From: Escherichia coli
GTDB lineage: Bacteria; Pseudomonadota; Gammaproteobacteria; Enterobacterales; Enterobacteriaceae
DNA: 64,000 bases
Direction: 5' to 3' (one strand)
Assembly (NCBI RefSeq): GCF_009931435.1
Contig: NZ_CP043414.1
The position numbers and the translations under genes are program-made. Of this stretch, positions 1,832 to 12,789 are shown piece by piece. How positions within the stretch are numbered: the stretch's first letter is position 1; every line of letters starts with the position of its first letter. The notes beneath the pieces are model-generated. The model was given only the letters and a program-made list of their open reading frames with translations. It was not told where the DNA came from and searched no databases.

Positions 1832-4508
1832 CGAACCCTTACGTCCCGACCCCGATCGTCTGCTGGAACAAACTGCCGCGCCGCATCGGGGGAAGCTGAA
1901 AGTTTTTTTCGGTGCCTGTGCAGGCGTCGGGAAGACCTGGGCGATGCTGGCAGAAGCCCAACGACTGCGGGCGCAAGGGCTGGATATTGTGGTTGGCGTG
2001 GTTGAAACTCACGGACGGAAAGATACCGCCGCAATGCTGGAAGGGCTGGCTGTTCTGCCGCTAAAACGCCAGGCGTACCGTGGGCGGCATATCAGCGAGT
2101 TTGATCTCGATGCCGCCCTCGCCCGCCGTCCGGCGCTGATCTTAATGGACGAACTGGCGCACAGTAATGCGCCAGGTTCTCGTCATCCTAAACGCTGGCA
2201 GGACATCGAAGAGCTGCTGGAAGCGGGCATTGATGTTTTCACGACCGTCAACGTTCAGCATCTGGAAAGCCTGAACGATGTGGTCAGCGGCGTCACCGGA
2301 ATTCAGGTGCGGGAAACCGTGCCCGATCCCTTTTTTGATGCTGCCGACGACGTAGTGCTGGTGGACTTGCCCCCGGACGATCTGCGTCAACGGCTGAAAG
2401 AAGGCAAAGTCTATATTGCCGGGCAGGCGGAGCGCGCCATTGAACATTTTTTCCGCAAAGGCAATCTGATCGCCCTGCGCGAACTGGCACTGCGCCGTAC
2501 TGCCGATCGCGTAGATGAGCAAATGCGCGCCTGGCGGGGGCATCCTGGCGAAGAGAAAGTCTGGCACACGCGCGACGCGATTCTTTTATGTATTGGGCAT
2601 AACACCGGCAGCGAAAAACTGGTCCGCGCGGCGGCGCGGTTGGCGTCACGGCTGGGGAGCGTCTGGCACGCGGTGTATGTTGAAACCCCTGCCCTGCACC
2701 GCTTACCGGAGAAAAAACGTCGGGCAATTCTCAGCGCCTTACGTCTGGCGCAGGAGCTGGGCGCGGAGACAGCAACACTTTCTGATCCGGCGGAAGAAAA
2801 AGCCGTAGTGCGTTATGCCCGTGAACATAATCTCGGCAAGATTATTCTCGGTCACCCGGCCTCGCGCCGCTGGTGGCGTCGGGAAACGTTTGCTGACCGA
2901 CTGGCGCGCATCGCCCCCGATCTCGATCAGGTGCTGGTCGCGCTTGATGAACCACCCGCCCGCCCGCTTAATAACGCGCCGGATAGCCGCTCTTTTAAAG
3001 ACAAGTGGCGGGTACAGATTCAGGGGTGCGTGGTTGCCGCCGCATTATGTGCCGTTATCACCTTAATTGCCATGCAGTGGCTGATGGCGTTTGATGCCGC
3101 CAACCTGGTGATGCTGTATCTGCTTGGCGTGGTGGTGGTGGCGCTATTTTATGGACGCTGGCCTTCGGTGCTTGCTACCGTCATTAATGTGGTGAGTTTC
3201 GATCTCTTTTTTATCGCCCCACGCGGCACGCTCGCCGTCTCTGATGTGCAGTATCTGCTGACTTTCGCGGTGATGTTAACCGTCGGGCTGGTGATCGGGA
3301 ATCTTACTGCTGGCGTACGTTATCAGGCGCGGGTAGCCCGTTACCGCGAGCAACGCACACGACACTTATATGAAATGTCGAAAGCTCTGGCTGTGGGACG
3401 CAGTCCGCAGGACATCGCCGCCACCAGCGAACAATTTTTTGCTTCCACGTTTCATGCCCGCAGCCAGGTGTTGTTGCCCGATGACAACGGTAAATTGCAG
3501 CCGTTGACACATCCGCAAGGAATGACGCCGTGGGACGATGCCATCGCGCAGTGGAGTTTTGATAAAGGCCTGCCTGCGGGCGCGGGCACCGACACGTTAC
3601 CCGGTGTGCCATACCAGATTTTGCCGTTAAAAAGCGGCGAGAAAACCTACGGGCTGGTGGTGGTGGAACCGGGGAATCTGCGCCAGTTGATGATCCCGGA
3701 ACAGCAACGCCTGCTGGAGACGTTTACGTTGTTAGTCGCCAATGCCCTGGAACGCCTGACGCTGACCGCCAGCGAAGAACAGGCGCGGATGGCAAGCGAA
3801 CGAGAACAGATCCGCAACGCCCTGCTGGCGGCGCTTTCGCATGATTTACGCACGCCGCTTACGGTGCTGTTCGGTCAGGCAGAAATCTTAACGCTCGATC
3901 TGGCAAGCGAAGGATCGCCTCACGCCCGCCAGGCCAGCGAGATTCGTCAGCATGTGCTGAACACGACCCGACTGGTGAATAATCTACTGGATATGGCGCG
4001 AATTCAGTCCGGCGGCTTTAATTTGAAGAAAGAGTGGTTAACGCTGGAAGAAGTGGTCGGCAGCGCGCTGAAAATGCTGGAACCGGGTTTATCCTCGCCC
4101 ATCAATCTTTCTCTGCCAGAACCGCTGACCTTAATCCACGTTGACGGGCCACTCTTTGAACGGGTGCTGATTAATCTGCTGGAGAACGCGGTGAAATACG
4201 CGGGTGCGCAGGCCGAAATTGGTATCGATGCCCACGTTGAGGGCGAAAATCTACAACTGGATGTCTGGGATAACGGCCCCGGTCTTCCGCCAGGTCAGGA
4301 GCAGACGATATTCGATAAGTTTGCTCGTGGAAATAAAGAGTCGGCAGTGCCGGGTGTAGGGCTTGGGCTGGCAATTTGTCGGGCAATTGTGGATGTACAC
4401 GGCGGCACCATTACCGCGTTCAACCGACCGGAAGGTGGTGCCTGTTTTCGTGTTACACTTCCCCAGCAAACTGCCCCTGAACTTGAAGAATTTCATGAGG
4501 ATATGTGA
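1824..4508 (+). CDS. kdpD: sensor histidine kinase KdpD
   Basis: ORF track 1791..4508; start placed at ATG 1824 (MNNEPLRPD...), 894 aa; Walker-like GACAGVGKT, four TM helices, HisKA (SHDLRTPL) and ATPase domain; 8-nt overlap with kdpC. Confidence 0.93.
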
Positions 4509-5182
4509 CAAACGTTCTGATTGTTGAAGATGAACAGGCTATTCGTCGCTTTCTGCGCACGGCGCTGGAGGGTGACGGTATGCGCGTTTTTGAAGCCGAA
4601 ACGCTGCAACGGGGGCTGCTGGAAGCGGCGACTCGTAAGCCAGATTTGATTATTCTCGATCTCGGCCTGCCAGACGGTGATGGGATTGAGTTTATCCGCG
4701 ACCTGCGCCAGTGGAGCGCGGTGCCAGTAATTGTGCTTTCCGCCCGCAGCGAAGAGAGCGACAAAATCGCCGCGCTGGATGCCGGAGCGGATGATTACCT
4801 GAGTAAGCCATTTGGCATTGGTGAATTGCAGGCCCGTCTGCGCGTCGCATTACGCCGCCACTCCGCCACCACCGCGCCCGAGCCGCTGGTGAAATTTTCC
4901 GATGTTACCGTCGATTTAGCTGCCCGCGTGATTCACCGCAGTGAGGAAGAGGTGCATCTCACCCCGATTGAATTCCGCCTGCTGGCGGTGCTACTCAACA
5001 ATGCCGGAAAAGTGCTCACCCAGCGCCAGCTTCTCAACCAGGTGTGGGGACCAAACGCGGTCGAACACAGCCACTATTTGCGTATTTATATGGGGCATCT
5101 GCGACAAAAACTGGAGCAAGATCCCGCCCGCCCTCGCCATTTTATTACTGAAACCGGTATTGGGTATCGGTTTATGCCATGA
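4505..5182 (+). CDS. kdpE: response regulator KdpE
   Basis: ORF track 4505..5182, 225 aa; GTG start overlapping kdpD stop (GTGA); receiver domain plus OmpR-type winged helix. Confidence 0.93.
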   Translation: MTNVLIVEDEQAIRRFLRTALEGDGMRVFEAETLQRGLLEAATRKPDLIILDLGLPDGDGIEFIRDLRQWSAVPVIVLSARSEESDKIAALDAGADDYLSKPFGIGELQARLRVALRRHSATTAPEPLVKFSDVTVDLAARVIHRSEEEVHLTPIEFRLLAVLLNNAGKVLTQRQLLNQVWGPNAVEHSHYLRIYMGHLRQKLEQDPARPRHFITETGIGYRFMP

Positions 5183-5227
5183 ATTATTATTCAATAAATA
5201 CGCTTAACTAATTATTAATTTATTATT

Positions 5228-5270
5228 AAACCTGCCCCGAAAATTATTATTTGGCAGGTTTAATTTCTTA
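5228..5270 (+). terminator. hairpin with large loop followed by T-rich tract downstream of kdpE
   Basis: aaacctgcc ... ggcaggttt inverted repeat then aatttctt; AT-rich context. Confidence 0.4.
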
Positions 5271-5456
5271 ATGAAAATATAACCTACGAAATTGCAACAT
5301 TTAAACAACAAAACAGCATCTAATATGGCGCTATTCATAATTAACGATTTATTATTTGGGGTGTGATCGTTTTTTGTTGATCTTCTTCACAGTTTATAGC
5401 CTTTTCATGGATAGAATAACTCTACCTTCAACTGACACAGCAAAAGGTAAAGGTAA

Positions 5457-5561
5457 ATGGAAAATAATAACCGCTTAATGCCTCATATAAGGCGGACAAC
5501 CCATATCATGAAGTTTGCCCATCGTAATAGTTTTGACTTTCATTTCTTTAATGCCCGTTAG
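5457..5561 (+). CDS. speFL: speF leader peptide SpeFL (34 aa, ornithine-sensing arrest peptide)
   Basis: Not in ORF track (below size cutoff). ATG 5457 to TAG 5559-5561 translates MENNNRLMPHIRRTTHIMKFAHRNSFDFHFFNAR; sits ~310 nt upstream of speF. Confidence 0.85.
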   Translation: MENNNRLMPHIRRTTHIMKFAHRNSFDFHFFNAR

Positions 5562-5871
5562 TCTTCTGACTAAAGGGCACCCCAGCGTACAGGTCTCCCT
5601 GACTTTAAGCATTACAGGTTAATACCTGTATCCCTCGGTGCTCATATACTGCTAACCCTTTTAAACTCTAAATAATTCAAGTCGCAGCACTAGCAACTTG
5701 AAGTATGACGAGTATAGCCAGTTACCGGGCTGGTCTGGGTTATTGCATCTGCAAAAAGCAAACTACTGATTTATTTATCAGCGGTGGAGTTTTGCTTTTT
5801 TTCCGGCGTGATCGATTTCTCCTTTGAGAAATTGAGGACCTGCTATTACCTGAAATAAAGAGATGAACAAA

Positions 5872-8070
5872 ATGTCAGAATTAAAAATTGCCGTTAGTCG
5901 TTCTTGCCCGGATTGTTTTTCCACTCATCGTGCATGCGTGAATATTGACGAAAGTAATTATATTGACGTTGCCGCCATTATTTTATCAGTCAATGATGTT
6001 GAACGTGGAAAACTCGATGAAATAGACGCTACTGGCTATGGCATTCCTGTTTTTATTGCAACGGAAAATGAAGAACGTGTACCAGCAGAATATCTGCCAC
6101 GTATTACTGGTGTCTTCGAGCATTGCGAATCACGGAAAGAATTTTACGGACGTCAGTTAGAAACCGCCGCCAGCCATTATGAAACGCAGCTGCGCCCGCC
6201 CTTCTTCCGCGCACTGGTCGATTATGTCAATCAGGGCAATAGCGCTTTTGACTGCCCGGGTCATCAGGGGGGTGAGTTTTTCCGTCGCCATCCGGCAGGC
6301 AATCAGTTCGTGGAATATTTTGGCGAAATGCTCTTCCGCTCCGACTTGTGTAATGCCGACGTAGCAATGGGCGATCTACTGATTCATGAAGGTGCGCCAT
6401 GCATTGCACAGCAACATGCGGCTAAAGTGTTTAATGCCGATAAAACGTACTTTGTTTTAAACGGCACCTCCTCTTCCAACAAAGTGGTTTTAAACGCCCT
6501 GCTAACACCGGGTGATCTGGTGCTGTTTGACCGCAATAACCATAAGTCTAACCACCACGGGGCCTTGCTACAGGCTGGTGCAACACCGGTTTATCTGGAA
6601 ACAGCACGTAACCCGTATGGTTTTATCGGTGGTATTGATGCGCACTGCTTCGAAGAAAGTTATCTGCGTGAACTGATTAGAGAAGTTGCACCGCAACGGG
6701 CAAAAGAGGCGCGTCCGTTCCGCCTCGCTGTGATTCAGTTAGGCACCTACGACGGTACTATTTATAACGCCCGCCAGGTGGTGGATAAAATCGGTCATCT
6801 GTGTGACTACATCCTGTTTGACTCAGCATGGGTCGGCTATGAACAGTTTATTCCGATGATGGCGGACTGTTCGCCGCTGCTACTGGAGCTTAATGAGAAC
6901 GATCCGGGTATTCTGGTTACGCAATCTGTACATAAGCAGCAGGCTGGTTTTTCTCAGACTTCACAAATTCATAAAAAAGACAGCCATATCAAAGGGCAAC
7001 AGCGTTATGTACCGCACAAACGCATGAACAACGCCTTTATGATGCACGCCTCCACCAGCCCGTTCTATCCGCTGTTTGCCGCACTGGATATTAACGCCAA
7101 AATGCATGAAGGTGTCAGCGGTCGTAATATGTGGATGGATTGTGTGGTTAACGGTATTAATGCCCGCAAATTGATCCTCGATAACTGCCAGCACATTCGT
7201 CCGTTCGTTCCTGAACTGGTGGATGGTAAACCCTGGCAATCGTATGAAACAGCGCAAATTGCGGTTGATCTGCGCTTCTTTAAATTTGTACCCGGTGAGC
7301 ACTGGCATTCTTTTGAAGGTTACGCAGAGAATCAATACTTTGTCGATCCGTGCAAACTGTTGCTGACAACCCCAGGTATTGATGCACGTAACGGCGAATA
7401 CGAAGCGTTCGGTGTACCCGCGACGATTCTTGCTAACTTCCTGCGCGAAAATGGCGTAGTGCCGGAAAAATGCGATCTTAACTCCATCCTCTTCCTGCTG
7501 ACTCCGGCAGAAGATATGGCCAAACTGCAGCAACTTGTTGCCCTGCTGGTACGCTTCGAAAAACTACTGGAAGCTGATGCGCCTCTGGCGGAAGTATTGC
7601 CTTCCATCTACAAACAGCATGAAGAGCGCTACGCCGGTTATACCCTGCGTCAGTTGTGCCAGGAAATGCATGATTTGTATGCCCGTCACAACGTGAAACA
7701 ACTGCAAAAAGAGATGTTCCGTAAGGAACACTTCCCACGCGTCAGCATGAATCCACAGGAAGCCAACTATGCCTACTTACGCGGTGAAGTGGAATTGGTT
7801 CGTCTGCCGGATGCAGAAGGCCGTATCGCAGCCGAAGGTGCGCTTCCTTATCCTCCGGGTGTGCTGTGTGTTGTTCCGGGTGAAATCTGGGGTGGTGCTG
7901 TTCTGCGTTACTTCAGCGCTCTGGAAGAAGGGATCAACCTGCTGCCAGGTTTTGCACCGGAGCTGCAGGGTGTCTATATCGAAGAACATGATGGTCGTAA
8001 GCAAGTTTGGTGCTATGTCATCAAGCCTCGTGATGCGCAAAGCACCCTGTTGAAAGGGGAAAAATTATGA
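5872..8070 (+). CDS. speF: inducible ornithine decarboxylase
   Basis: ORF track 5863..8070; start placed at ATG 5872 (MSELKIAV...) with aaagag 9 nt upstream, 732 aa; PLP-dependent Orn/Lys/Arg decarboxylase fold-type I. Confidence 0.93.
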   Translation: MSELKIAVSRSCPDCFSTHRACVNIDESNYIDVAAIILSVNDVERGKLDEIDATGYGIPVFIATENEERVPAEYLPRITGVFEHCESRKEFYGRQLETAASHYETQLRPPFFRALVDYVNQGNSAFDCPGHQGGEFFRRHPAGNQFVEYFGEMLFRSDLCNADVAMGDLLIHEGAPCIAQQHAAKVFNADKTYFVLNGTSSSNKVVLNALLTPGDLVLFDRNNHKSNHHGALLQAGATPVYLETARNPYGFIGGIDAHCFEESYLRELIREVAPQRAKEARPFRLAVIQLGTYDGTIYNARQVVDKIGHLCDYILFDSAWVGYEQFIPMMADCSPLLLELNENDPGILVTQSVHKQQAGFSQTSQIHKKDSHIKGQQRYVPHKRMNNAFMMHASTSPFYPLFAALDINAKMHEGVSGRNMWMDCVVNGINARKLILDNCQHIRPFVPELVDGKPWQSYETAQIAVDLRFFKFVPGEHWHSFEGYAENQYFVDPCKLLLTTPGIDARNGEYEAFGVPATILANFLRENGVVPEKCDLNSILFLLTPAEDMAKLQQLVALLVRFEKLLEADAPLAEVLPSIYKQHEERYAGYTLRQLCQEMHDLYARHNVKQLQKEMFRKEHFPRVSMNPQEANYAYLRGEVELVRLPDAEGRIAAEGALPYPPGVLCVVPGEIWGGAVLRYFSALEEGINLLPGFAPELQGVYIEEHDGRKQVWCYVIKPRDAQSTLLKGEKL

Positions 8071-9386
8071 GTCAGGCTAAATCGAACAAAATGGGCGTCG
8101 TTCAGTTAACCATACTGACGATGGTCAACATGATGGGCTCCGGCATCATCATGCTGCCGACAAAGCTTGCCGAAGTTGGGACAATCTCAATAATCTCCTG
8201 GTTGGTGACAGCCGTAGGCTCAATGGCGCTGGCATGGGCATTCGCAAAATGCGGTATGTTCAGCCGTAAATCAGGCGGTATGGGCGGTTATGCCGAGTAT
8301 GCTTTCGGTAAATCCGGTAACTTTATGGCGAACTATACCTACGGCGTCTCGCTGCTGATTGCTAACGTGGCGATTGCTATTTCGGCAGTTGGTTACGGCA
8401 CCGAACTGCTCGGCGCGAGTTTGTCACCAGTGCAGATTGGTCTGGCAACCATCGGAGTGCTGTGGATTTGTACCGTGGCTAACTTTGGTGGTGCGCGCAT
8501 TACCGGGCAAATCAGTAGCATTACCGTGTGGGGGGTCATTATTCCGGTGGTAGGCCTGTGCGTTATCGGCTGGTTCTGGTTTAGCCCGACACTTTACGTT
8601 GATTCCTGGAATCCGCATCATGCACCGTTCTTCAGTGCGGTAGGTTCTTCCATCGCCATGACGCTGTGGGCTTTTCTTGGTCTGGAGTCTGCGTGTGCGA
8701 ATACTGATGTAGTGGAAAACCCGGAACGTAATGTGCCAATCGCGGTACTCGGCGGTACGTTAGGTGCGGCGGTGATTTATATCGTCTCCACCAACGTGAT
8801 TGCCGGGATTGTGCCCAATATGGAGCTGGCAAATTCAACGGCACCATTTGGTCTGGCCTTCGCGCAAATGTTCACACCGGAAGTGGGTAAAGTCATTATG
8901 GCGCTGATGGTGATGTCCTGCTGCGGTTCACTGCTTGGCTGGCAGTTCACCATTGCCCAGGTGTTTAAATCTTCATCTGATGAAGGCTACTTCCCTAAAA
9001 TTTTCTCCCGTGTAACCAAAGTGGATGCACCGGTTCAGGGGATGTTGACCATTGTGATTATTCAGAGTGGATTGGCACTGATGACCATTAGCCCGTCACT
9101 GAACAGCCAGTTCAACGTGCTGGTTAACCTGGCCGTGGTGACCAATATCATTCCGTATATCCTGTCGATGGCGGCATTAGTCATTATTCAGAAGGTCGCC
9201 AATGTGCCACCATCAAAAGCGAAAGTAGCAAACTTTGTTGCCTTTGTTGGTGCGATGTACAGTTTCTATGCGCTGTACTCATCCGGGGAAGAAGCCATGC
9301 TGTACGGTTCCATCGTGACTTTCCTTGGTTGGACACTGTATGGTCTGGTATCACCACGCTTTGAACTGAAAAACAAACACGGTTAA
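8067..9386 (+). CDS. potE: putrescine-ornithine antiporter
   Basis: ORF track 8067..9386, 439 aa, 12 predicted TM segments, APC-family transporter; ATGA overlap with speF stop. Confidence 0.95.
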   Translation: MSQAKSNKMGVVQLTILTMVNMMGSGIIMLPTKLAEVGTISIISWLVTAVGSMALAWAFAKCGMFSRKSGGMGGYAEYAFGKSGNFMANYTYGVSLLIANVAIAISAVGYGTELLGASLSPVQIGLATIGVLWICTVANFGGARITGQISSITVWGVIIPVVGLCVIGWFWFSPTLYVDSWNPHHAPFFSAVGSSIAMTLWAFLGLESACANTDVVENPERNVPIAVLGGTLGAAVIYIVSTNVIAGIVPNMELANSTAPFGLAFAQMFTPEVGKVIMALMVMSCCGSLLGWQFTIAQVFKSSSDEGYFPKIFSRVTKVDAPVQGMLTIVIIQSGLALMTISPSLNSQFNVLVNLAVVTNIIPYILSMAALVIIQKVANVPPSKAKVANFVAFVGAMYSFYALYSSGEEAMLYGSIVTFLGWTLYGLVSPRFELKNKHG

Positions 9387-9404
9387 AAAAAGCGAAATAA
9401 AAAA

Positions 9405-9436
9405 GGGCGATTGAATGATCGCCCTTTCTGTTTGTT
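9405..9436 (+). terminator. rho-independent terminator after potE
   Basis: gggcgat / atcgccc stem with 6-nt loop followed by tttctgtttgtt. Confidence 0.7.
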
Positions 9437-9467
9437 GACAAAGAGTTCGTTATTTATGCCGCATCCG

Positions 9468-9610
9468 GCAGGTGTAGGGTCCAAACGCGGTCGAACACAG
9501 CAACTATTTGCGTAATTATATGAGGCATTTGCGACAAAAACTGGAACAGGATCTCGTCCGCCCCGCCATTTCATTACTGAAACCGGTATTGGGTATCGGT
9601 TTATGCTTTG
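9468..9610 (+). repeat. degenerate direct copy (~90% identity) of the last ~143 bp of kdpE (5038..5182), non-coding (premature TAG)
   Basis: By-eye alignment: caggtgtagggtccaaacgcggtcgaacacag...gaaaccggtattgggtatcggtttatgctttga versus kdpE 3' end caggtgtggggaccaaacgcggtcgaacacag...gaaaccggtattgggtatcggtttatgccatga; one 1-nt indel. Confidence 0.85.
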
Positions 9611-9734
9611 AAAAAAGTGGCAATGTATGGATAAAGTCATTTTTTATTCAAATATAAGGAACTTAATATTTAAAAAATGTCCCATACAATGCCTCATCAT
9701 AAATGACACCGTAGCACACAAGGAGCAAGTAGCG

Positions 9735-10385
9735 ATGCGTGAAGTGAGTCAGTTAGTAAATACTGAAGATTCAGCCTGGACAATAATCCAGAATTGGTTA
9801 AAAGAAGCCACAAACCATGCCGAACTCTTACCGGTTAATAAAGATTTAGCCGAAACCGCACTTTATCAATTACAGGTTACAACAAAATCACCGATGGGTG
9901 CGCTTGTCTATGGCTCCGGAGGTCTGCTGATTGATAACGGTTGGTTACGCATAGCAGGCTCTGGTCACCCCCGGTTACCACGAGATCCAGCAAGTTGGAC
10001 ACAACGCCCTGAATTCGCAAGCGTGCGGGCTTTACCCATCGCCGATGATGTCGCAGGGGGAATTTTTGCTCTTAATGGTGGCGATCTTGGGGAAGATACT
10101 GGCTGCGTTTATTATTTTGCGCCAGATACGCTGAGTTGGGAAAGTCTGGAGGTTGGATATTCTGAGTTTCTTCAGTGGGCATTATCCGGTGATTTAGATA
10201 CCTTCTATGAAAATGTACGCTGGCCGCAATGGCAAGAAGACGTAATAAAATTATCGGCAACGGAAGCCTTCACTTTCTACCCTTTCTTATGGGTACAAAG
10301 TGAAGAAGCAAGAACAAGAAAAGTTATTTCGCTTACTGAACTCTGGGAAATGCAGTATCAAATGAAAGAAACAATCACGCAATAA
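9735..10385 (+). CDS. DUF2625-family protein (YbfG-like), apparently intact
   Basis: ORF track 9627..10385; start placed at ATG 9735 (MREVSQL...) with aaggag 10 nt upstream, 216 aa; position corresponds to ybfG/ybfH locus. Confidence 0.7.
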   Translation: MREVSQLVNTEDSAWTIIQNWLKEATNHAELLPVNKDLAETALYQLQVTTKSPMGALVYGSGGLLIDNGWLRIAGSGHPRLPRDPASWTQRPEFASVRALPIADDVAGGIFALNGGDLGEDTGCVYYFAPDTLSWESLEVGYSEFLQWALSGDLDTFYENVRWPQWQEDVIKLSATEAFTFYPFLWVQSEEARTRKVISLTELWEMQYQMKETITQ

Positions 10386-10396
10386 GACATGTTCAG

Positions 10397-10428
10397 GTCC
10401 GGGTTTCATTCCCGGACTCGCTATTTTA
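10397..10428. terminator. hairpin between convergent genes (DUF2625 gene and ybfP)
   Basis: gtccggg tttcatt cccggac followed by tcgctatttt. Confidence 0.55.
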
Positions 10429-10920
10429 ATGTGTGTTTATCGCTTTCAATTCTTGCTGGCAATTTTCTGACTGACAGCGTCGCAACTCAATAATCCCGAC
10501 ATGCATCATCGAGCCAAAAAATCCGCTTTCGCTGACATAATCCTCATTAACTATCGGTCGAGTGCCGGGCTTACCCTGGCAAATCCCCATAAAAAATGAG
10601 GTGTAGCATTGCCATTCAGGATTTAAACCGGTCTTTTCTTGTGCTGACATATCATGAAGATAAGTAAGTTCTTTTTCGTTCCCGCCTGACAACTGCCAGC
10701 GGCGGGTATTATCAGGTAAGTTATCGCCACGGCAATTTGTCTTACACCGGGAAGGCGCAATATTTACCGCAATGCTACCCGTTAATCCTCTGGTTTTATC
10801 TTTAGGGGTCAGTAACCAGTCACCAGCTAATGATGATTGTTCAGGTTGGGCGCATGCTGTCAGCAGTAGTGTGGCGGTAATTAATGCCACTCTGACGACC
10901 AGACTCCTTTTGGTCTTCAT
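10426..10920 (-). CDS. ybfP: lipoprotein YbfP
   Basis: ORF track 10426..10971; start placed at ATG 10920 (MKTKRSLVVRVALITATLLLTAC), lipobox LTAC, 164 aa. Confidence 0.85.
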   Translation of the reverse strand: MKTKRSLVVRVALITATLLLTACAQPEQSSLAGDWLLTPKDKTRGLTGSIAVNIAPSRCKTNCRGDNLPDNTRRWQLSGGNEKELTYLHDMSAQEKTGLNPEWQCYTSFFMGICQGKPGTRPIVNEDYVSESGFFGSMMHVGIIELRRCQSENCQQELKAINTH

Positions 10921-10968
10921 TCGGAATTCCCTTGAGCTATTCAGTTTGTTGGCAAAGTACTCGTTGTT

Positions 10969-11075
10969 CATGCCGGATGCGGCGTGAACGCCTTATCCGT
11001 CCTACAAAATAGTGCAAATTCAATATATTGCACCATCCTCGTAGGCCTGATGAACGTAGCGTATCAGGCTATCAT
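10969..11075. repeat. BIME / REP palindromic units
   Basis: tgccggatgcggcgtgaacgccttatcc ... gtaggcctgatgaacgtagcgtatcaggc, canonical REP consensus in inverted pair. Confidence 0.85.
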
Positions 11076-11123
11076 AAGTAAAAAGGGCGATCTTCCGACC
11101 GCCCTTTTTCTTATTTAATGTGT

Positions 11124-12764
11124 TTACGCGTTTTTCAGAACTTCGCTAACAATCTCAACCGCTTCTTTCTCGATCTGCTTGCGATGTTCTTCACCGAGGA
11201 AGCTTTCGCAGTAGATTTTGTATGCGTCTTCCGTGCCTGACGGACGCGCGGCGAACCAGCCGTTGTCAGTCATCACTTTCAGACCGCCAATAGAAGCACC
11301 GTTGCCCGGTGCCGCCGTCAGGCGCGCGGTGATCGGGTCACCAGCCAGGGTGCTGGCGCTCACCATTTCCGGAGACAGCTTAGACAGCGCCGCTTTTTGT
11401 GCGGAAGTCGCAGCTGCCTGCAAACGGTTATAGCTCGGCGCACCAAAGCGTTTTGCCAGTTCGTTGTAGTGTTCCTGCGGGTTCTTACCAGTGACAGCGG
11501 TGATTTCCGCCGCCAGCAGACACATGATAATGCCGTCTTTATCAGTCGACCACGGCGTACCGTCGAAACGCAGGAAGGAAGCCCCCGCGCTCTCTTCGCC
11601 GCCAAAGCCAAAGCTGCCGTCGAACAGACCATCCACAAACCATTTGAAGCCTACCGGGACTTCTACCAGCTTACGGCCTAAGTCATTGACCACACGGTCG
11701 ATCATCGCAGATGAAACCAGCGTTTTACCGACAGCAACATCTTTGCCCCACTGCGGACGATGCTGGAACAGGTAGTTGATCGCCACCGCCAGGTAGTGGT
11801 TAGGATTCATCAAACCTGCCGGAGTGACGATACCGTGACGGTCATAATCCGGGTCGTTAGCAAATGCCAGATCGAACTTATCACGCAGTGCCAGCAGGCC
11901 CGCCATCGCACACTCGGAGGAGCAGTCCATACGGATCGCGCCGTCTTTATCGAGGTGCATAAAGCGGAAGGTTTGATCGACCTGATCGTTAACGATGGTC
12001 AGGTTAAGGTTGTAATACTCGCCAATACGCTTCCAGTATTCGATACCGGAACCGCCCAGCGGATCAACGCCCAGCGTCAGGCCCGCTTTCTGAATCGCCG
12101 CCATATCAACGATATCGGCCAGACCTTCCACAAACGGCTGCACCAGATCCTGCTCTTTCACATGACCGGATGCCATCGCTTCGTCGAGGGAGATACGCTT
12201 CACACCTTTCAGGCCATCGGCCATCAGTGCGTTGGCCCTGTCCTCCACCACTTTGGTGACGTTAGTATCAGCCGGGCCACCATTTGGCGGATTGTACTTG
12301 ATACCACCATCTTCCGGCGGGTTATGGGACGGTGTAATCACGATACCGTCTGCCAGCGGGCCACCTTTTTTATTGTGAACCAGGATGGCATTGGAAACGG
12401 CAGGCGTCGGAGTGAAGCCATTGTTTTCCTGCACAATAACATCTACGCCGTTCGCTGCCAGCACTTCCAGTACGGAAATGAACGCAGGCTCGGACAGGGC
12501 GTGAGTATCTTTACCCACATAGCAAGGGCCAGTGATGCCGTTTTTCGCACGTTCTTCAGCAATTGCCTGAGCGATCGCCAGAATATGCGGCTCGTTAAAG
12601 CTGTGGCGCGCTGCACTGCCACGGTGACCGGAAGTACCGAATTTCACCGCGTGCTCCGCATTCCCTGCTTCAGGTTTCAGTACATAATATTGCGCCGTCA
12701 GTTGGGCGACGTTAATCAAATCACTCTGTTGTGCAGGTTGGCCTGCACGATTGTGGATTGCCAT
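11124..12764 (-). CDS. pgm: phosphoglucomutase
   Basis: ORF track 11124..12815; start placed at ATG 12764 (MAIHNRAGQ...), 546 aa; TSGHRGS active-site serine motif. Confidence 0.95.
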
Positions 12765-12789
12765 TGCTTTGTCCTTTGTCTGCAACGTT

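Follow-up and report, generated by a model that had tools for sequence, protein, structure and literature searches.

Organization of the kdpE-pgm interval

The window, that is, the whole stretch of 64,000 nucleotides of Escherichia coli DNA that was analyzed, contains a variable interval between kdpE and pgm. This interval comprises speFL-speF-potE (the module), a second copy of the 3′ end of kdpE (the stub), and the ybfG-ybfP islet, along with several short repeated elements. Table 1 summarizes the corresponding features.

Table 1. Features of the kdpE-pgm interval, with positions given as those of the window.
Feature	Position	Strand	Evidence
kdpE, functional response-regulator gene	4505..5182	+	ORF list; PGAP annotation of matching record; at least 97% identical to other Escherichia KdpE
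Repeat copy 1: final 144 nt of kdpE, TGA stop included, and 1 further base	5039..5183	+	MAFFT, blastn, repeat search
AT-rich kdpE-speF interval: promoter region, speFL, speFL-speF leader	5184..5871	+	GC 0.35–0.39
speFL, 34-aa ORF	5457–5561	+	ORF list; tblastn
speF, inducible ornithine decarboxylase	5872..8070	+	annotation of near-identical record; tblastn
potE, putrescine-ornithine antiporter	8067..9386	+	annotation; in 5045/5426 E. coli genomes
Terminator L, bidirectional hairpin, type next to pgm in E. albertii (GGGCGATTGAATGATCGCCC)	9402..9427	.	z = -4.8
Filler: box′ and overlapping truncated REP arm	9428..9468	+	sequence comparison
box′ (CTGTTTGTTGACAAAGAGTTCGTTATTTATGCC), 33 nt, within filler	9428–9460	+	repeat of box upstream of ybfP
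Truncated REP arm (GCCGCATCCGGCA), 13 nt	9458–9470	+	overlaps box′
Repeat copy 2: kdpE 3′ stub, pseudogene ybfI; TAG 9475–9477, 1-nt deletion	9469..9612	+	MAFFT, blastn, PGAP, MG1655
ybfG, DUF2625 protein, intact in source strain	9735..10385	+	annotation; PF10946
ybfP, lipoprotein	10426..10920	-	annotation; MG1655
box, parental copy, upstream of ybfP	10942..10974	+	sequence comparison
BIME: two REPs either side of ES036-like spacer	10972..11075	.	Rfam; homology
Terminator R, hairpin next to pgm (GGGCGATCTTCCGACCGCCC)	11082..11110	.	z = -5.6 on +, -7.9 on -
pgm, conserved right-hand anchor of variable interval	11125..12765	-	annotation; tblastn

The short elements recur within the arrangement. 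Terminators L and R form a direct repeat with 76% identity (family D3), and the box was found in just two copies in the window, where none would be expected by chance. Among the surveyed loci, the box was confined to two sites, one behind terminator L and one upstream of ybfP. Accordingly, the arrangement holds three direct-repeat pairs, namely, the kdpE ends, the 33-nt box, and the terminators. The BIME, a REP of which can be read as GCCGGATGCGGCG...CGCCTTATCCG, shares homology with the spacer between kdpE and pgm in Escherichia species without speF. Its Rfam match to ES036 scored 45.5 bits, above the gathering threshold, while the match to naRNA4 was weak and sub-threshold. Queries with the BIME element matched a median of 22–40 places per E. 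coli genome. REP palindromes of this widely dispersed kind were present both in the BIME and in the 13-nt arm in front of the stub, and the last 2 nt of that arm fall inside the CAGGTGT microhomology with which the stub opens.

The GC content was 0.47–0.54 in speF-potE and 0.41–0.46 in the ybfG-ybfP islet, and the kdpE-speF interval was lower still (Table 1). The original prediction had read the AT-rich segment at 5183–5860 as consistent with foreign or H-NS-silenced DNA. However, neither atypical acquired genes nor poor conservation was found there, as the GC content of speF-potE is ordinary and SpeFL is 82–97% identical across genera in tblastn searches. SpeFL is an ornithine-sensing arrest peptide with Rho-dependent attenuation (10.1101/604074). 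The AT-rich segment is the conserved speFL leader with its Rho attenuator and is not a sign of foreign DNA. The proposed comparison of speF-potE with its flanks also pointed away from the module, because the lower-GC part among the coding regions at the locus was the islet.

A displaced 3′ end of kdpE

A second, colinear copy of the kdpE end lies downstream of potE in the same orientation (blastn E = 1e-50), and the repeat search split this repeat into two families, D1 and D2. Alignment of both copies gave 14 differing columns out of 144, corresponding to an identity of approximately 90%. These differences include a single 1-nt deletion, located in the downstream copy, where CCCTCGCC became CCC-CGCC. 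At the beginning of the repeat, CAG GTG TGG (5039–5047) is changed to CAG GTG TAG (9469–9477), and the homology between the copies ends exactly at the kdpE stop codon (TGAA). The repeat, its one indel, and the non-coding state of the downstream copy with its TGG-to-TAG change had all been predicted from the sequence and were confirmed, the predicted coordinates being right within 1–2 nt. Moreover, the similarity consists of approximately 140 bp of colinear kdpE coding sequence, as had been supposed, and a short REP-like motif was excluded as its source by blastn and alignment. The copy was also placed correctly downstream of the potE terminator, but it does not lie directly against the hairpin, from which it is separated by 41 nt of filler.

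The downstream copy is the feature annotated in K-12 MG1655 as the pseudogene ybfI (b4636), which is likewise situated between potE and ybfG. PGAP describes the copy in the window as 'frameshifted; incomplete; missing N-terminus', and in other strains as a partial 'winged helix-turn-helix domain-containing protein' pseudogene. The stub is without the first 534 nt of kdpE and carries two disabling lesions, TAG at fragment codon 3 and the 1-nt deletion. Colinear homology over 143–144 nt, truncation, lesions, and the lack of codon-position bias identify it as a gene-fragment pseudogene. In an Rfam scan, no RNA family was found over the stub, the sole matches being REP-associated and located in the BIME, and simple promoter scans gave only weak consensus matches over the stub, near shuffle expectation. 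The second kdpE end, displaced and dead, is what remains of a kdpE gene and was shown to be without function and without mobile-element machinery. The repeat is real but an ordinary evolutionary scar, and the pseudogene itself was already annotated. The ybfI annotation is silent on the origin of the fragment, and nothing on the origin of E. coli ybfI, ybfG, or ybfP was found in the literature searched.

The kinship of the stub was determined by comparison with kdpE alleles. The stub differed by 8–12% from E. coli kdpE alleles and clustered with them, while the divergence of kdpE between genera was 23–30%, compared with approximately 9% for the stub. This closeness points to a young, within-lineage event. 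However, kdpE 3′ ends are unusually diverse in E. coli, differing at up to 13 of 144 nt, and the stub is thus not precisely datable. Two stub alleles, F-type and K-12-type, were distinguished; they differ at 7% of positions and form one clade with a common junction and four private changes, TAG included. The window carries the rarer F-phylogroup-type allele, which has an extra 1-nt frameshift relative to the K-12 allele. The stub-private changes were distributed 5:5:3 over codon positions 1:2:3, plus the frameshift, in what is a small sample. Judging from these sequences, the stub arose once and decays neutrally. The ending of the stub, ATGCTTTGA, compared with ATGCCATGA in the window kdpE, was considered as the mark of a foreign allele and was rejected because CTTTGA is the prevailing ending of E. 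coli kdpE; the unusual allele is the Pro codon of the window's own kdpE.

Distribution of the module, the stub, and the islet

The occurrence of these elements was surveyed in 80 enterobacterial species loci, from which E. fergusonii, E. marmotae, E. ruysiae, and Salmonella were absent, and in 5426 complete E. coli genomes. The module was located between kdpE and pgm in 29 of the 80 species loci, including those of E. albertii, Citrobacter, Enterobacter, Kluyvera, Lelliottia, and Atlantibacter, and no kdpE remnant was detected in any of these 29 loci (E ≤ 1e-3). In tblastn searches, the identities of SpeF and PotE dropped with species distance in step with those of KdpD and KdpE. In 40 of the 80 loci, kdpE and pgm were directly adjacent. 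In Klebsiella indica, the module is missing but kdpE is directly followed by the final 79 nt of potE, indicating that module-less states can be secondary.

Among the E. coli genomes, the remnant was present in 1833–1850 (34%), the module occurred without the repeat in approximately 59%, and speF-potE was missing from 7%. The stub was found only together with the ybfG-ybfP islet; in O157, which has potE-terminator-pgm, the stub, ybfG, and ybfP are all absent. The PotE proteins of islet-bearing and islet-free genomes were identical. Among the surveyed loci, the islet was specific to E. coli. YbfG homologues of >85% identity came from E. coli wherever the source was named, and exact-protein look-ups for YbfG homologues gave E. 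coli-type loci only. No YbfG context outside E. coli was found, the next relatives being at most 57% identical, with the exception of two short fragments.

Structural haplotypes and proposed origin of the window type

The kdpE-pgm interval is a REP-rich cassette hot spot at which several structural haplotypes exist side by side in Escherichia, namely, haplotype A (kdpE-BIME-pgm), haplotype B (kdpE-BIME-ybfP-pgm; 247 of the 5426 E. coli genomes), haplotype D (kdpE-speFL-speF-potE-pgm), and haplotype E, the window type. At least five layouts were observed in E. coli. The downstream copy implies a kdpE that formerly stood directly upstream of the ybfG-side sequence. Moreover, terminator L matches the terminator next to pgm in E. 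albertii, while the BIME and terminator R match the spacers of speF-less Escherichia. We consider it probable that the repeat marks a joint, made within Escherichia, between a module-bearing and a module-less haplotype, and not the original acquisition of the module.

Under this interpretation, the window type would have had a single origin in the E. coli lineage. One parent would have been a chromosome segment with the module and with terminator L at its end, the arrangement of E. albertii, and the other a module-less kdpE-ybfG-ybfP-box-BIME-terminator R-pgm haplotype. Illegitimate recombination would have fused the two 143 nt before the end of the second kdpE, the joint passing through the 41-nt filler, for which the box-REP upstream of ybfP was presumably the template, and the 7-nt microhomology CAGGTGT. 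As the module-bearing side would have supplied an intact kdpE, the displaced stub would have been free to decay. Both junctions, terminator L|box′ as well as REP′|kdpE′, could have formed in one complex event, by tandem duplication and then replacement, or by a Campbell-type integration in which a potE-terminator L-box haplotype took up a circle. A surviving ancestral kdpE-ybfG haplotype was not found, the three genomes with this layout looking like secondary deletions, and we thus infer the module-less parent.

The original prediction was that foreign speFL-speF-potE, with an H-NS-silenced AT-rich leader, had been inserted at the 3′ end of kdpE and that the repeat was the footprint of this acquisition. 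The geometry agrees with such an insertion, as the repeats bracket the module exactly and the module-side copy completes kdpE; a 3′ end has indeed been displaced, and the functional end of kdpE now stands before speFL. The kdpE-pgm adjacency in half of the species loci likewise makes the module an insertion relative to that layout, and the leader is low in GC. However, the module lacks the repeat in all 29 module-bearing species loci and in the majority of E. coli genomes, and the divergence of SpeF and PotE between species follows that of KdpD and KdpE. If the remnant had the age of the module, it should have diverged by at least 23–30%, as kdpE has between genera, and not by 9%. In addition, speF-potE has ordinary GC, the leader is a conserved regulatory element, and the stub travels with ybfG-ybfP rather than with the module. 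A primary acquisition was therefore judged highly improbable. The structure bears a likeness to att-flanked islands and prophages at tRNA or tmRNA genes, in which the inserted DNA lies between two copies of a gene 3′ end and the gene remains intact. Here, however, 143 nt are repeated at 90% identity, where such islands have a short identical core, and in many genera the module between the repeats is the ancestral occupant of the slot. No site-specific recombinase was found between the repeats, where only speFL, speF, and potE are located, or in the flanks (kdpD/E and ybfG/ybfP/pgm), near-identical short cores were absent, and the presence of the module was uncoupled from that of the repeat. 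Transposon or IS insertion fits no better, as the interval contains no transposase and the duplication is 143 nt, not 2–14 bp.

Two further explanations place the event downstream of potE. The last 143 nt of kdpE may have been copied there by template switching or REP-mediated tandem duplication, with a secondary link to ybfG-ybfP. REP-adjacent duplications of the kdpE end do occur at the locus, since in the module-less locus L092 (6001–6072) the final ~76 nt of kdpE and the BIME were independently duplicated in tandem, and the left junction of the stub also abuts a REP arm. This local duplication is nevertheless very unlikely: the copy is non-tandem and 4.4 kb away, and terminators L and R are different alleles, each typical of another haplotype, which indicates two parents. 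Furthermore, the homology stops exactly at the stop codon, where alternative cassettes diverge in all haplotypes; a joint of haplotypes predicts this end, whereas a random copy would reach it only through chance. Alternatively, a kdpE-speFL-speF-potE-terminator-pgm recipient may have gained a kdpE′-ybfG-ybfP-BIME-terminator R-pgm fragment downstream of potE from a module-less strain, with the stub as a passenger, integration being homologous at the pgm side and illegitimate at the left. The constant linkage of the stub to a low-GC, E. coli-specific islet and the identical PotE proteins are consistent with this mirror image, and its product has the same structure and final sequence as the joint of haplotypes, making the two hard to separate. 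However, the sampled islet-free E. coli spacers all carry the R-type hairpin, while the islet-bearing form has the L-type after potE. The islet would also have needed its own L hairpin, box′, and REP′, so that the donor would have been no simple kdpE-ybfG haplotype. On this evidence, the gain of the islet by a module-bearing recipient was regarded as unlikely.

Deletion-type haplotypes

For each of the three repeat pairs, a matching deletion-type haplotype was found in natural genomes. Corresponding to the kdpE/kdpE′ pair, speFL-speF-potE is lost in CUWW10/ET846 and GF4-3; corresponding to the box′/box pair, the stub and ybfG-ybfP are missing from R32_14_1F and N96; and corresponding to the terminator L/R pair, the whole islet is absent in the common potE-pgm form. 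A chimeric kdpE-ybfG query matched two genomes (CUWW10 and GF4-3), plus ET846 with an IS1. Genomes lacking speF-potE in which kdpE is directly followed by ybfG thus exist as rare E. coli, the layout for which the original prediction had proposed a check, but they are not ancestral empty sites. In its left flank, CUWW10 has one mismatch over 2696 nt to a K-12-type haplotype E genome, and in its islet approximately 1 nt differs outside the repeat. The GF4-3 islet nests within the K-12-type clade, whose origin is later than that of the stub. Some of the speF-potE-less genomes lost the module via deletion between the kdpE ends and some via IS1. The IS1 copies in HS and MB10 arose separately and at a later time.

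Two genomes, R32_14_1F and N96, have the layout that had been predicted as an intermediate, potE-terminator L-box-BIME-terminator R-pgm. Their box has 3–4 private changes, which is at odds with a clean recent deletion as well as with a simple ancestor, and the layout may be a precursor or a deletion product. All four sampled E. coli potE-pgm spacers consisted of the potE flank and an R-type hairpin, with hairpin loop alleles (ttgc, ttct, ttcc) in common with the terminator R alleles of islet-bearing genomes. Based on these four spacers and on hairpin-type parsimony, the common potE-pgm form was probably derived from the window type.

It is possible, though doubtful, that E. coli ancestrally carried the window type at a cassette-exchange hot spot driven by REPs, where the three nested repeat pairs would render the acid-inducible module and the islet precisely and recurrently excisable. 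If so, the potE-pgm form (~59%) and the module-less forms (~7%) would be products of repeated loss mediated by repeats or IS1, and the stub would be a working recombination substrate shaping strain variation in polyamine and acid response. Deletion between direct repeats, RecA-dependent or not, is a route of gene loss and offers a parallel in that natural genomes are without exactly the DNA inside each repeat pair; the events here are deduced from genome comparison. REP and BIME sequences reportedly also lie at the join points of rearrangements and tandem duplications, as in Salmonella his-region duplications. Similarly, the left edge of the stub and the L092 duplication are both REP-adjacent in an interval packed with REPs. 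However, no REP-REP recombination is seen at the joint; one of its partners is coding, and the microhomology is only 7 nt.

Implications

The direct consequences of the repeat are small, since the stub is already annotated as a pseudogene and gives no indication of function. The repeat serves as a worked example of how a tidy 'insertion footprint' in a single genome can mislead: the module is far older than the repeat, which probably records the later joining of two structural haplotypes. Moreover, the kdpE-pgm polymorphism matters wherever speF/potE, ornithine decarboxylase, or acid-response phenotypes are used as core E. coli traits.

Repetition of the kdpE 3′ end

The repeat of the kdpE 3′ end downstream of potE, claimed in the original prediction, was borne out, with coordinates correct to within 1-2 nt. 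MAFFT, blastn (E = 1e-50) and repeat finding concurred that the final 144 nt of kdpE plus one base (5039-5183) are repeated at 9469-9612. By our own count, 14 of 144 columns differ between the copies, and the two repeat-finding families covering the repeat (D1 and D2) are split by a single 1-nt deletion. At 9469-9477, the CAG GTG TGG of kdpE was changed to CAG GTG TAG. The repeat is far above chance expectation. The possibility that only a short REP-like motif recurs was tested, and the similarity was found to be kdpE coding sequence with no REP motif.

The second copy, hereafter the stub, is a real feature already annotated as a pseudogene. In the MG1655 RefSeq record it is ybfI (b4636, 716721-716870), between ybfG and potE. 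At the same position in other strains, PGAP places a partial "winged helix-turn-helix domain-containing protein", with the note "frameshifted; incomplete; missing N-terminus" in a strain identical to the window. A literature search found no paper treating the origin of ybfI.

Gene order and coordinates of the features in the E. coli window
Feature	Position	Strand	Placement
kdpD			first, before kdpE
kdpE	4505-5182
speFL	5457-5561
speF	5872-8070
potE	8067-9386
pseudogene			between potE and ybfG
ybfG (DUF2625)	9735-10385
ybfP	10426-10920	minus
BIME			between ybfP and pgm
pgm	11125-12765	minus

Distribution of the module and the stub

A KdpE scan using one genome per species gave 80 loci, the layouts of which were typed by tblastn. 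In 40 of these, kdpE and pgm were convergent neighbours less than 1.3 kb apart (including Pantoea, Serratia, Buttiauxella, several Citrobacter, E. whittamii and a second non-coli Escherichia), and in 29 the speFL-speF-potE module lay between them (including E. albertii, Citrobacter, Enterobacter, Kluyvera, Lelliottia, Trabulsiella, Cedecea and Atlantibacter). YbfG, YbfP and a second copy of the locus's own kdpE end were found in none of the 80. Identity to the window decreased in parallel for SpeF and PotE and for KdpD and KdpE, being 95, 97, 97 and 96%, respectively, in E. albertii, 85-86, 91-92, 81-83 and 83-84% in Enterobacter, and 82-83, 91, 78 and 79% in Atlantibacter. As SpeF and PotE track KdpD and KdpE, the module is old at the kdpE-pgm slot. 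Between genera, kdpE 3′ ends differ by 23-30%, and at least this divergence was expected of a remnant of the module's original insertion; thus, the stub, at only about 9%, is not that old.

Klebsiella indica (locus L018, 10675-10755) lacks speF-potE, yet the final 79 nt of potE, encoding VTFLGWTLYGLVSPRFELKNKHG and the stop, directly follow the kdpE stop codon. This remnant is a deletion scar, and the module-less state can be secondary. In Pseudocitrobacter faecalis (L022, 3251-5480), potE is absent and the pgm terminator comes immediately after speF, making an antiporter-less module variant.

Layouts were also counted among 5426 complete E. coli genomes. The stub was present in 1833-1850 (34%) and potE in 5045 (93%); therefore, approximately 59% have the module without the stub. 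No match to the potE 3′ half was found in 381 genomes (7%), and the inducible ornithine decarboxylase/antiporter operon is not strictly core in E. coli. In O157:H7, O111, 83972 (B2) and W4, potE and pgm are parted by one bidirectional terminator (~56 nt), with no stub, ybfG or ybfP there. Moreover, 247 of the 5426 showed a module-less kdpE-BIME-ybfP-box-BIME-pgm layout, where the box is a 33-nt sequence 5′ of ybfP. From these stub-free layouts, with and without the module, it was concluded that the stub accompanies the ybfG-ybfP islet, not the module.

Accordingly, the repeat could not be retained as the footprint of module acquisition, given the 29 module-bearing species loci without a second kdpE end and the module-bearing, stub-free majority of E. 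coli; what stood was the reading of the copy as a displaced end of kdpE and a recombination scar. The AT-rich leader had been considered consistent with foreign DNA. This region (5184-5871, GC 0.35-0.39) holds speFL and the speFL-speF leader, and SpeFL was 82-97% identical across genera (tblastn), so the reading was not upheld. speFL encodes a conserved arrest peptide that senses ornithine, with attenuation dependent on Rho (10.1101/604074). The low GC is a regulatory-region property and does not argue for recent foreign origin.

GC content was lower in the islet (0.41-0.46) than in speF-potE (0.47-0.54) and kdp (0.53-0.60). YbfG homologues above 85% identity were from E. coli wherever the source was named, and further relatives were at most 57% identical, except two short unnamed fragments (86% and 73%). 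In GCA_049181985.1 (L088, 1-5930), the locus is adjoined 5′ of ybfG by transposon DNA encoding DDE transposases, a beta-lactamase and a resolvase; homology to the window begins at 9664, the stub and all leftward sequence being replaced.

Alleles and decay of the stub

The stub allele of the window is typical of IAI39, SMS-3-5 and CE10, with about 130 genomes at least 99% identical, and differs from the K-12/BL21 type at 7% of positions. Both types form one clade with an identical junction and four common private changes, including the TAG. The private changes are spread 5:5:3 over codon positions, with one frameshift, a pattern expected under neutral decay. The nearest relatives were E. coli kdpE alleles (88-92%), then other Escherichia (85-89%) and Citrobacter (78-85%). 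The sequence comparison suggests that the stub originated once, in the E. coli lineage, prior to divergence of the two allele classes.

The window kdpE ends in Met-Pro (ATGCCATGA) and most E. coli kdpE in Met-Leu (ATGCTTTGA; window 5175-5260 vs 2830-2900 of loci L001 and L002). The kdpE-speFL spacer has two unrelated allelic forms, a window/O157 type and a K-12/L001 type, diverging from the stop codon. In L001, the stub is identical and the islet nearly so, but the spacer is of the other form and SpeF is only 96% identical. Judged from these alleles, the region is a recombination mosaic.

Structure and origin of the joint

The right end of the window layout (box, BIME and terminator R, GGGCGATCTTCCGACCGCCC) is homologous to the kdpE-pgm spacer of module-less Escherichia species, and terminator R is of a type seen in module-less haplotypes. 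Terminator L, the hairpin after potE (GGGCGATTGAATGATCGCCC), is of the type adjoining pgm directly in E. albertii. Both were strong predicted hairpins on folding. The 41 nt between terminator L and the stub comprise box′ (9428-9460), of which the only other copy lies at 10942-10974, 5′ of ybfP, and an overlapping 13-nt REP arm (9458-9470; GCCGCATCCGGCA), the exact reverse complement of the 5′ arm of the REP after the parental box. The REP arm passes into kdpE inside the common heptamer CAGGTGT, and the kdpE homology ends exactly at the stop codon, where alternative cassettes diverge in every haplotype. Within the BIME spacer between ybfP and pgm, 11006-11048 (+) matched Rfam ES036 (CssrF sRNA; 45.5 bits vs a gathering score of 37.6), adjoined by a weak naRNA4 match (10966-11002); both are more likely to be REP-associated repeat families than an sRNA specific to this locus.

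The stub is thus a kdpE 3′ end that has been displaced, is decaying and goes with the ybfG islet. It would have arisen through fusion of two haplotypes, one bearing the module with terminator L at its end and the other module-less (kdpE-ybfG-ybfP), by an illegitimate, REP-adjacent, microhomology-based joint with a short templated filler; the product would be the same whichever chromosome was the recipient. The same final sequence may also result from tandem duplication followed by replacement, or from Campbell-type integration of a circle into a potE-terminator L-box layout. In E. coli 2018-05-2CC (L092, 5870-6195; kdpE-BIME-ybfP-pgm), the final ~76 nt of kdpE and its BIME (two REPs) are tandemly duplicated. 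This remnant is independent of the stub, in a strain without speF-potE, and thus REP-adjacent duplications of the kdpE end recur at kdpE-pgm.

The direct repeats support deletions, and for all three pairs (kdpE/stub, box′/box and terminator L/R) the corresponding shorter layout was found in natural genomes. With a chimeric query, intact kdpE running directly into the stub 3′ flank and ybfG, without speF-potE, was detected in two genomes, CUWW10 and GF4-3; ET846 has this layout plus IS1. On its left flank, CUWW10 has a single mismatch in 2696 nt relative to a K-12-type genome with the full arrangement; compared with such genomes, its islet shows an estimated ~1 nt difference outside the repeat, and its kdpE resembles the K-12 type as far as the final 19 nt of the repeat. 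For the islet of GF4-3, identity was 98.3-98.7% to K-12-type islets and 96% to the window-type islet, which nests it in a clade younger than the stub. Consequently, these genomes were rejected as empty sites; by sequence, CUWW10, GF4-3 and ET846 appear to be secondary module excisions between the kdpE repeats.

For box′/box, two genomes (R32_14_1F and N96) show potE-terminator L-box-BIME-terminator R-pgm; their box has 3-4 private changes, which leave either direction of change possible. It reads CAGATTATTAACAAAG after terminator L (L098/L099, ~380-410), with three G-to-A and one T-to-A within 8 nt and flanks otherwise identical to the window type. In all four E. coli potE-pgm spacers sampled, the potE flank is joined to an R-type hairpin, with loop alleles (ttgc, ttct and ttcc) also present in terminator R of islet-bearing genomes. 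On this basis, a deletion across AAGTAAAAAAGGGCGAT, which may have happened more than once, would have turned the window type into the common potE-pgm form. IS1 copies occupy the speF-potE site in HS (L100, 2642-3500, also replacing the stub and ybfG) and MB10 (L097, 3395-4320), which look like IS1-mediated adjacent deletions, another route of module loss. As a useful by-product, the kdpE-pgm interval was revealed as a structurally polymorphic, REP-rich cassette slot from which speF-potE has been repeatedly lost.
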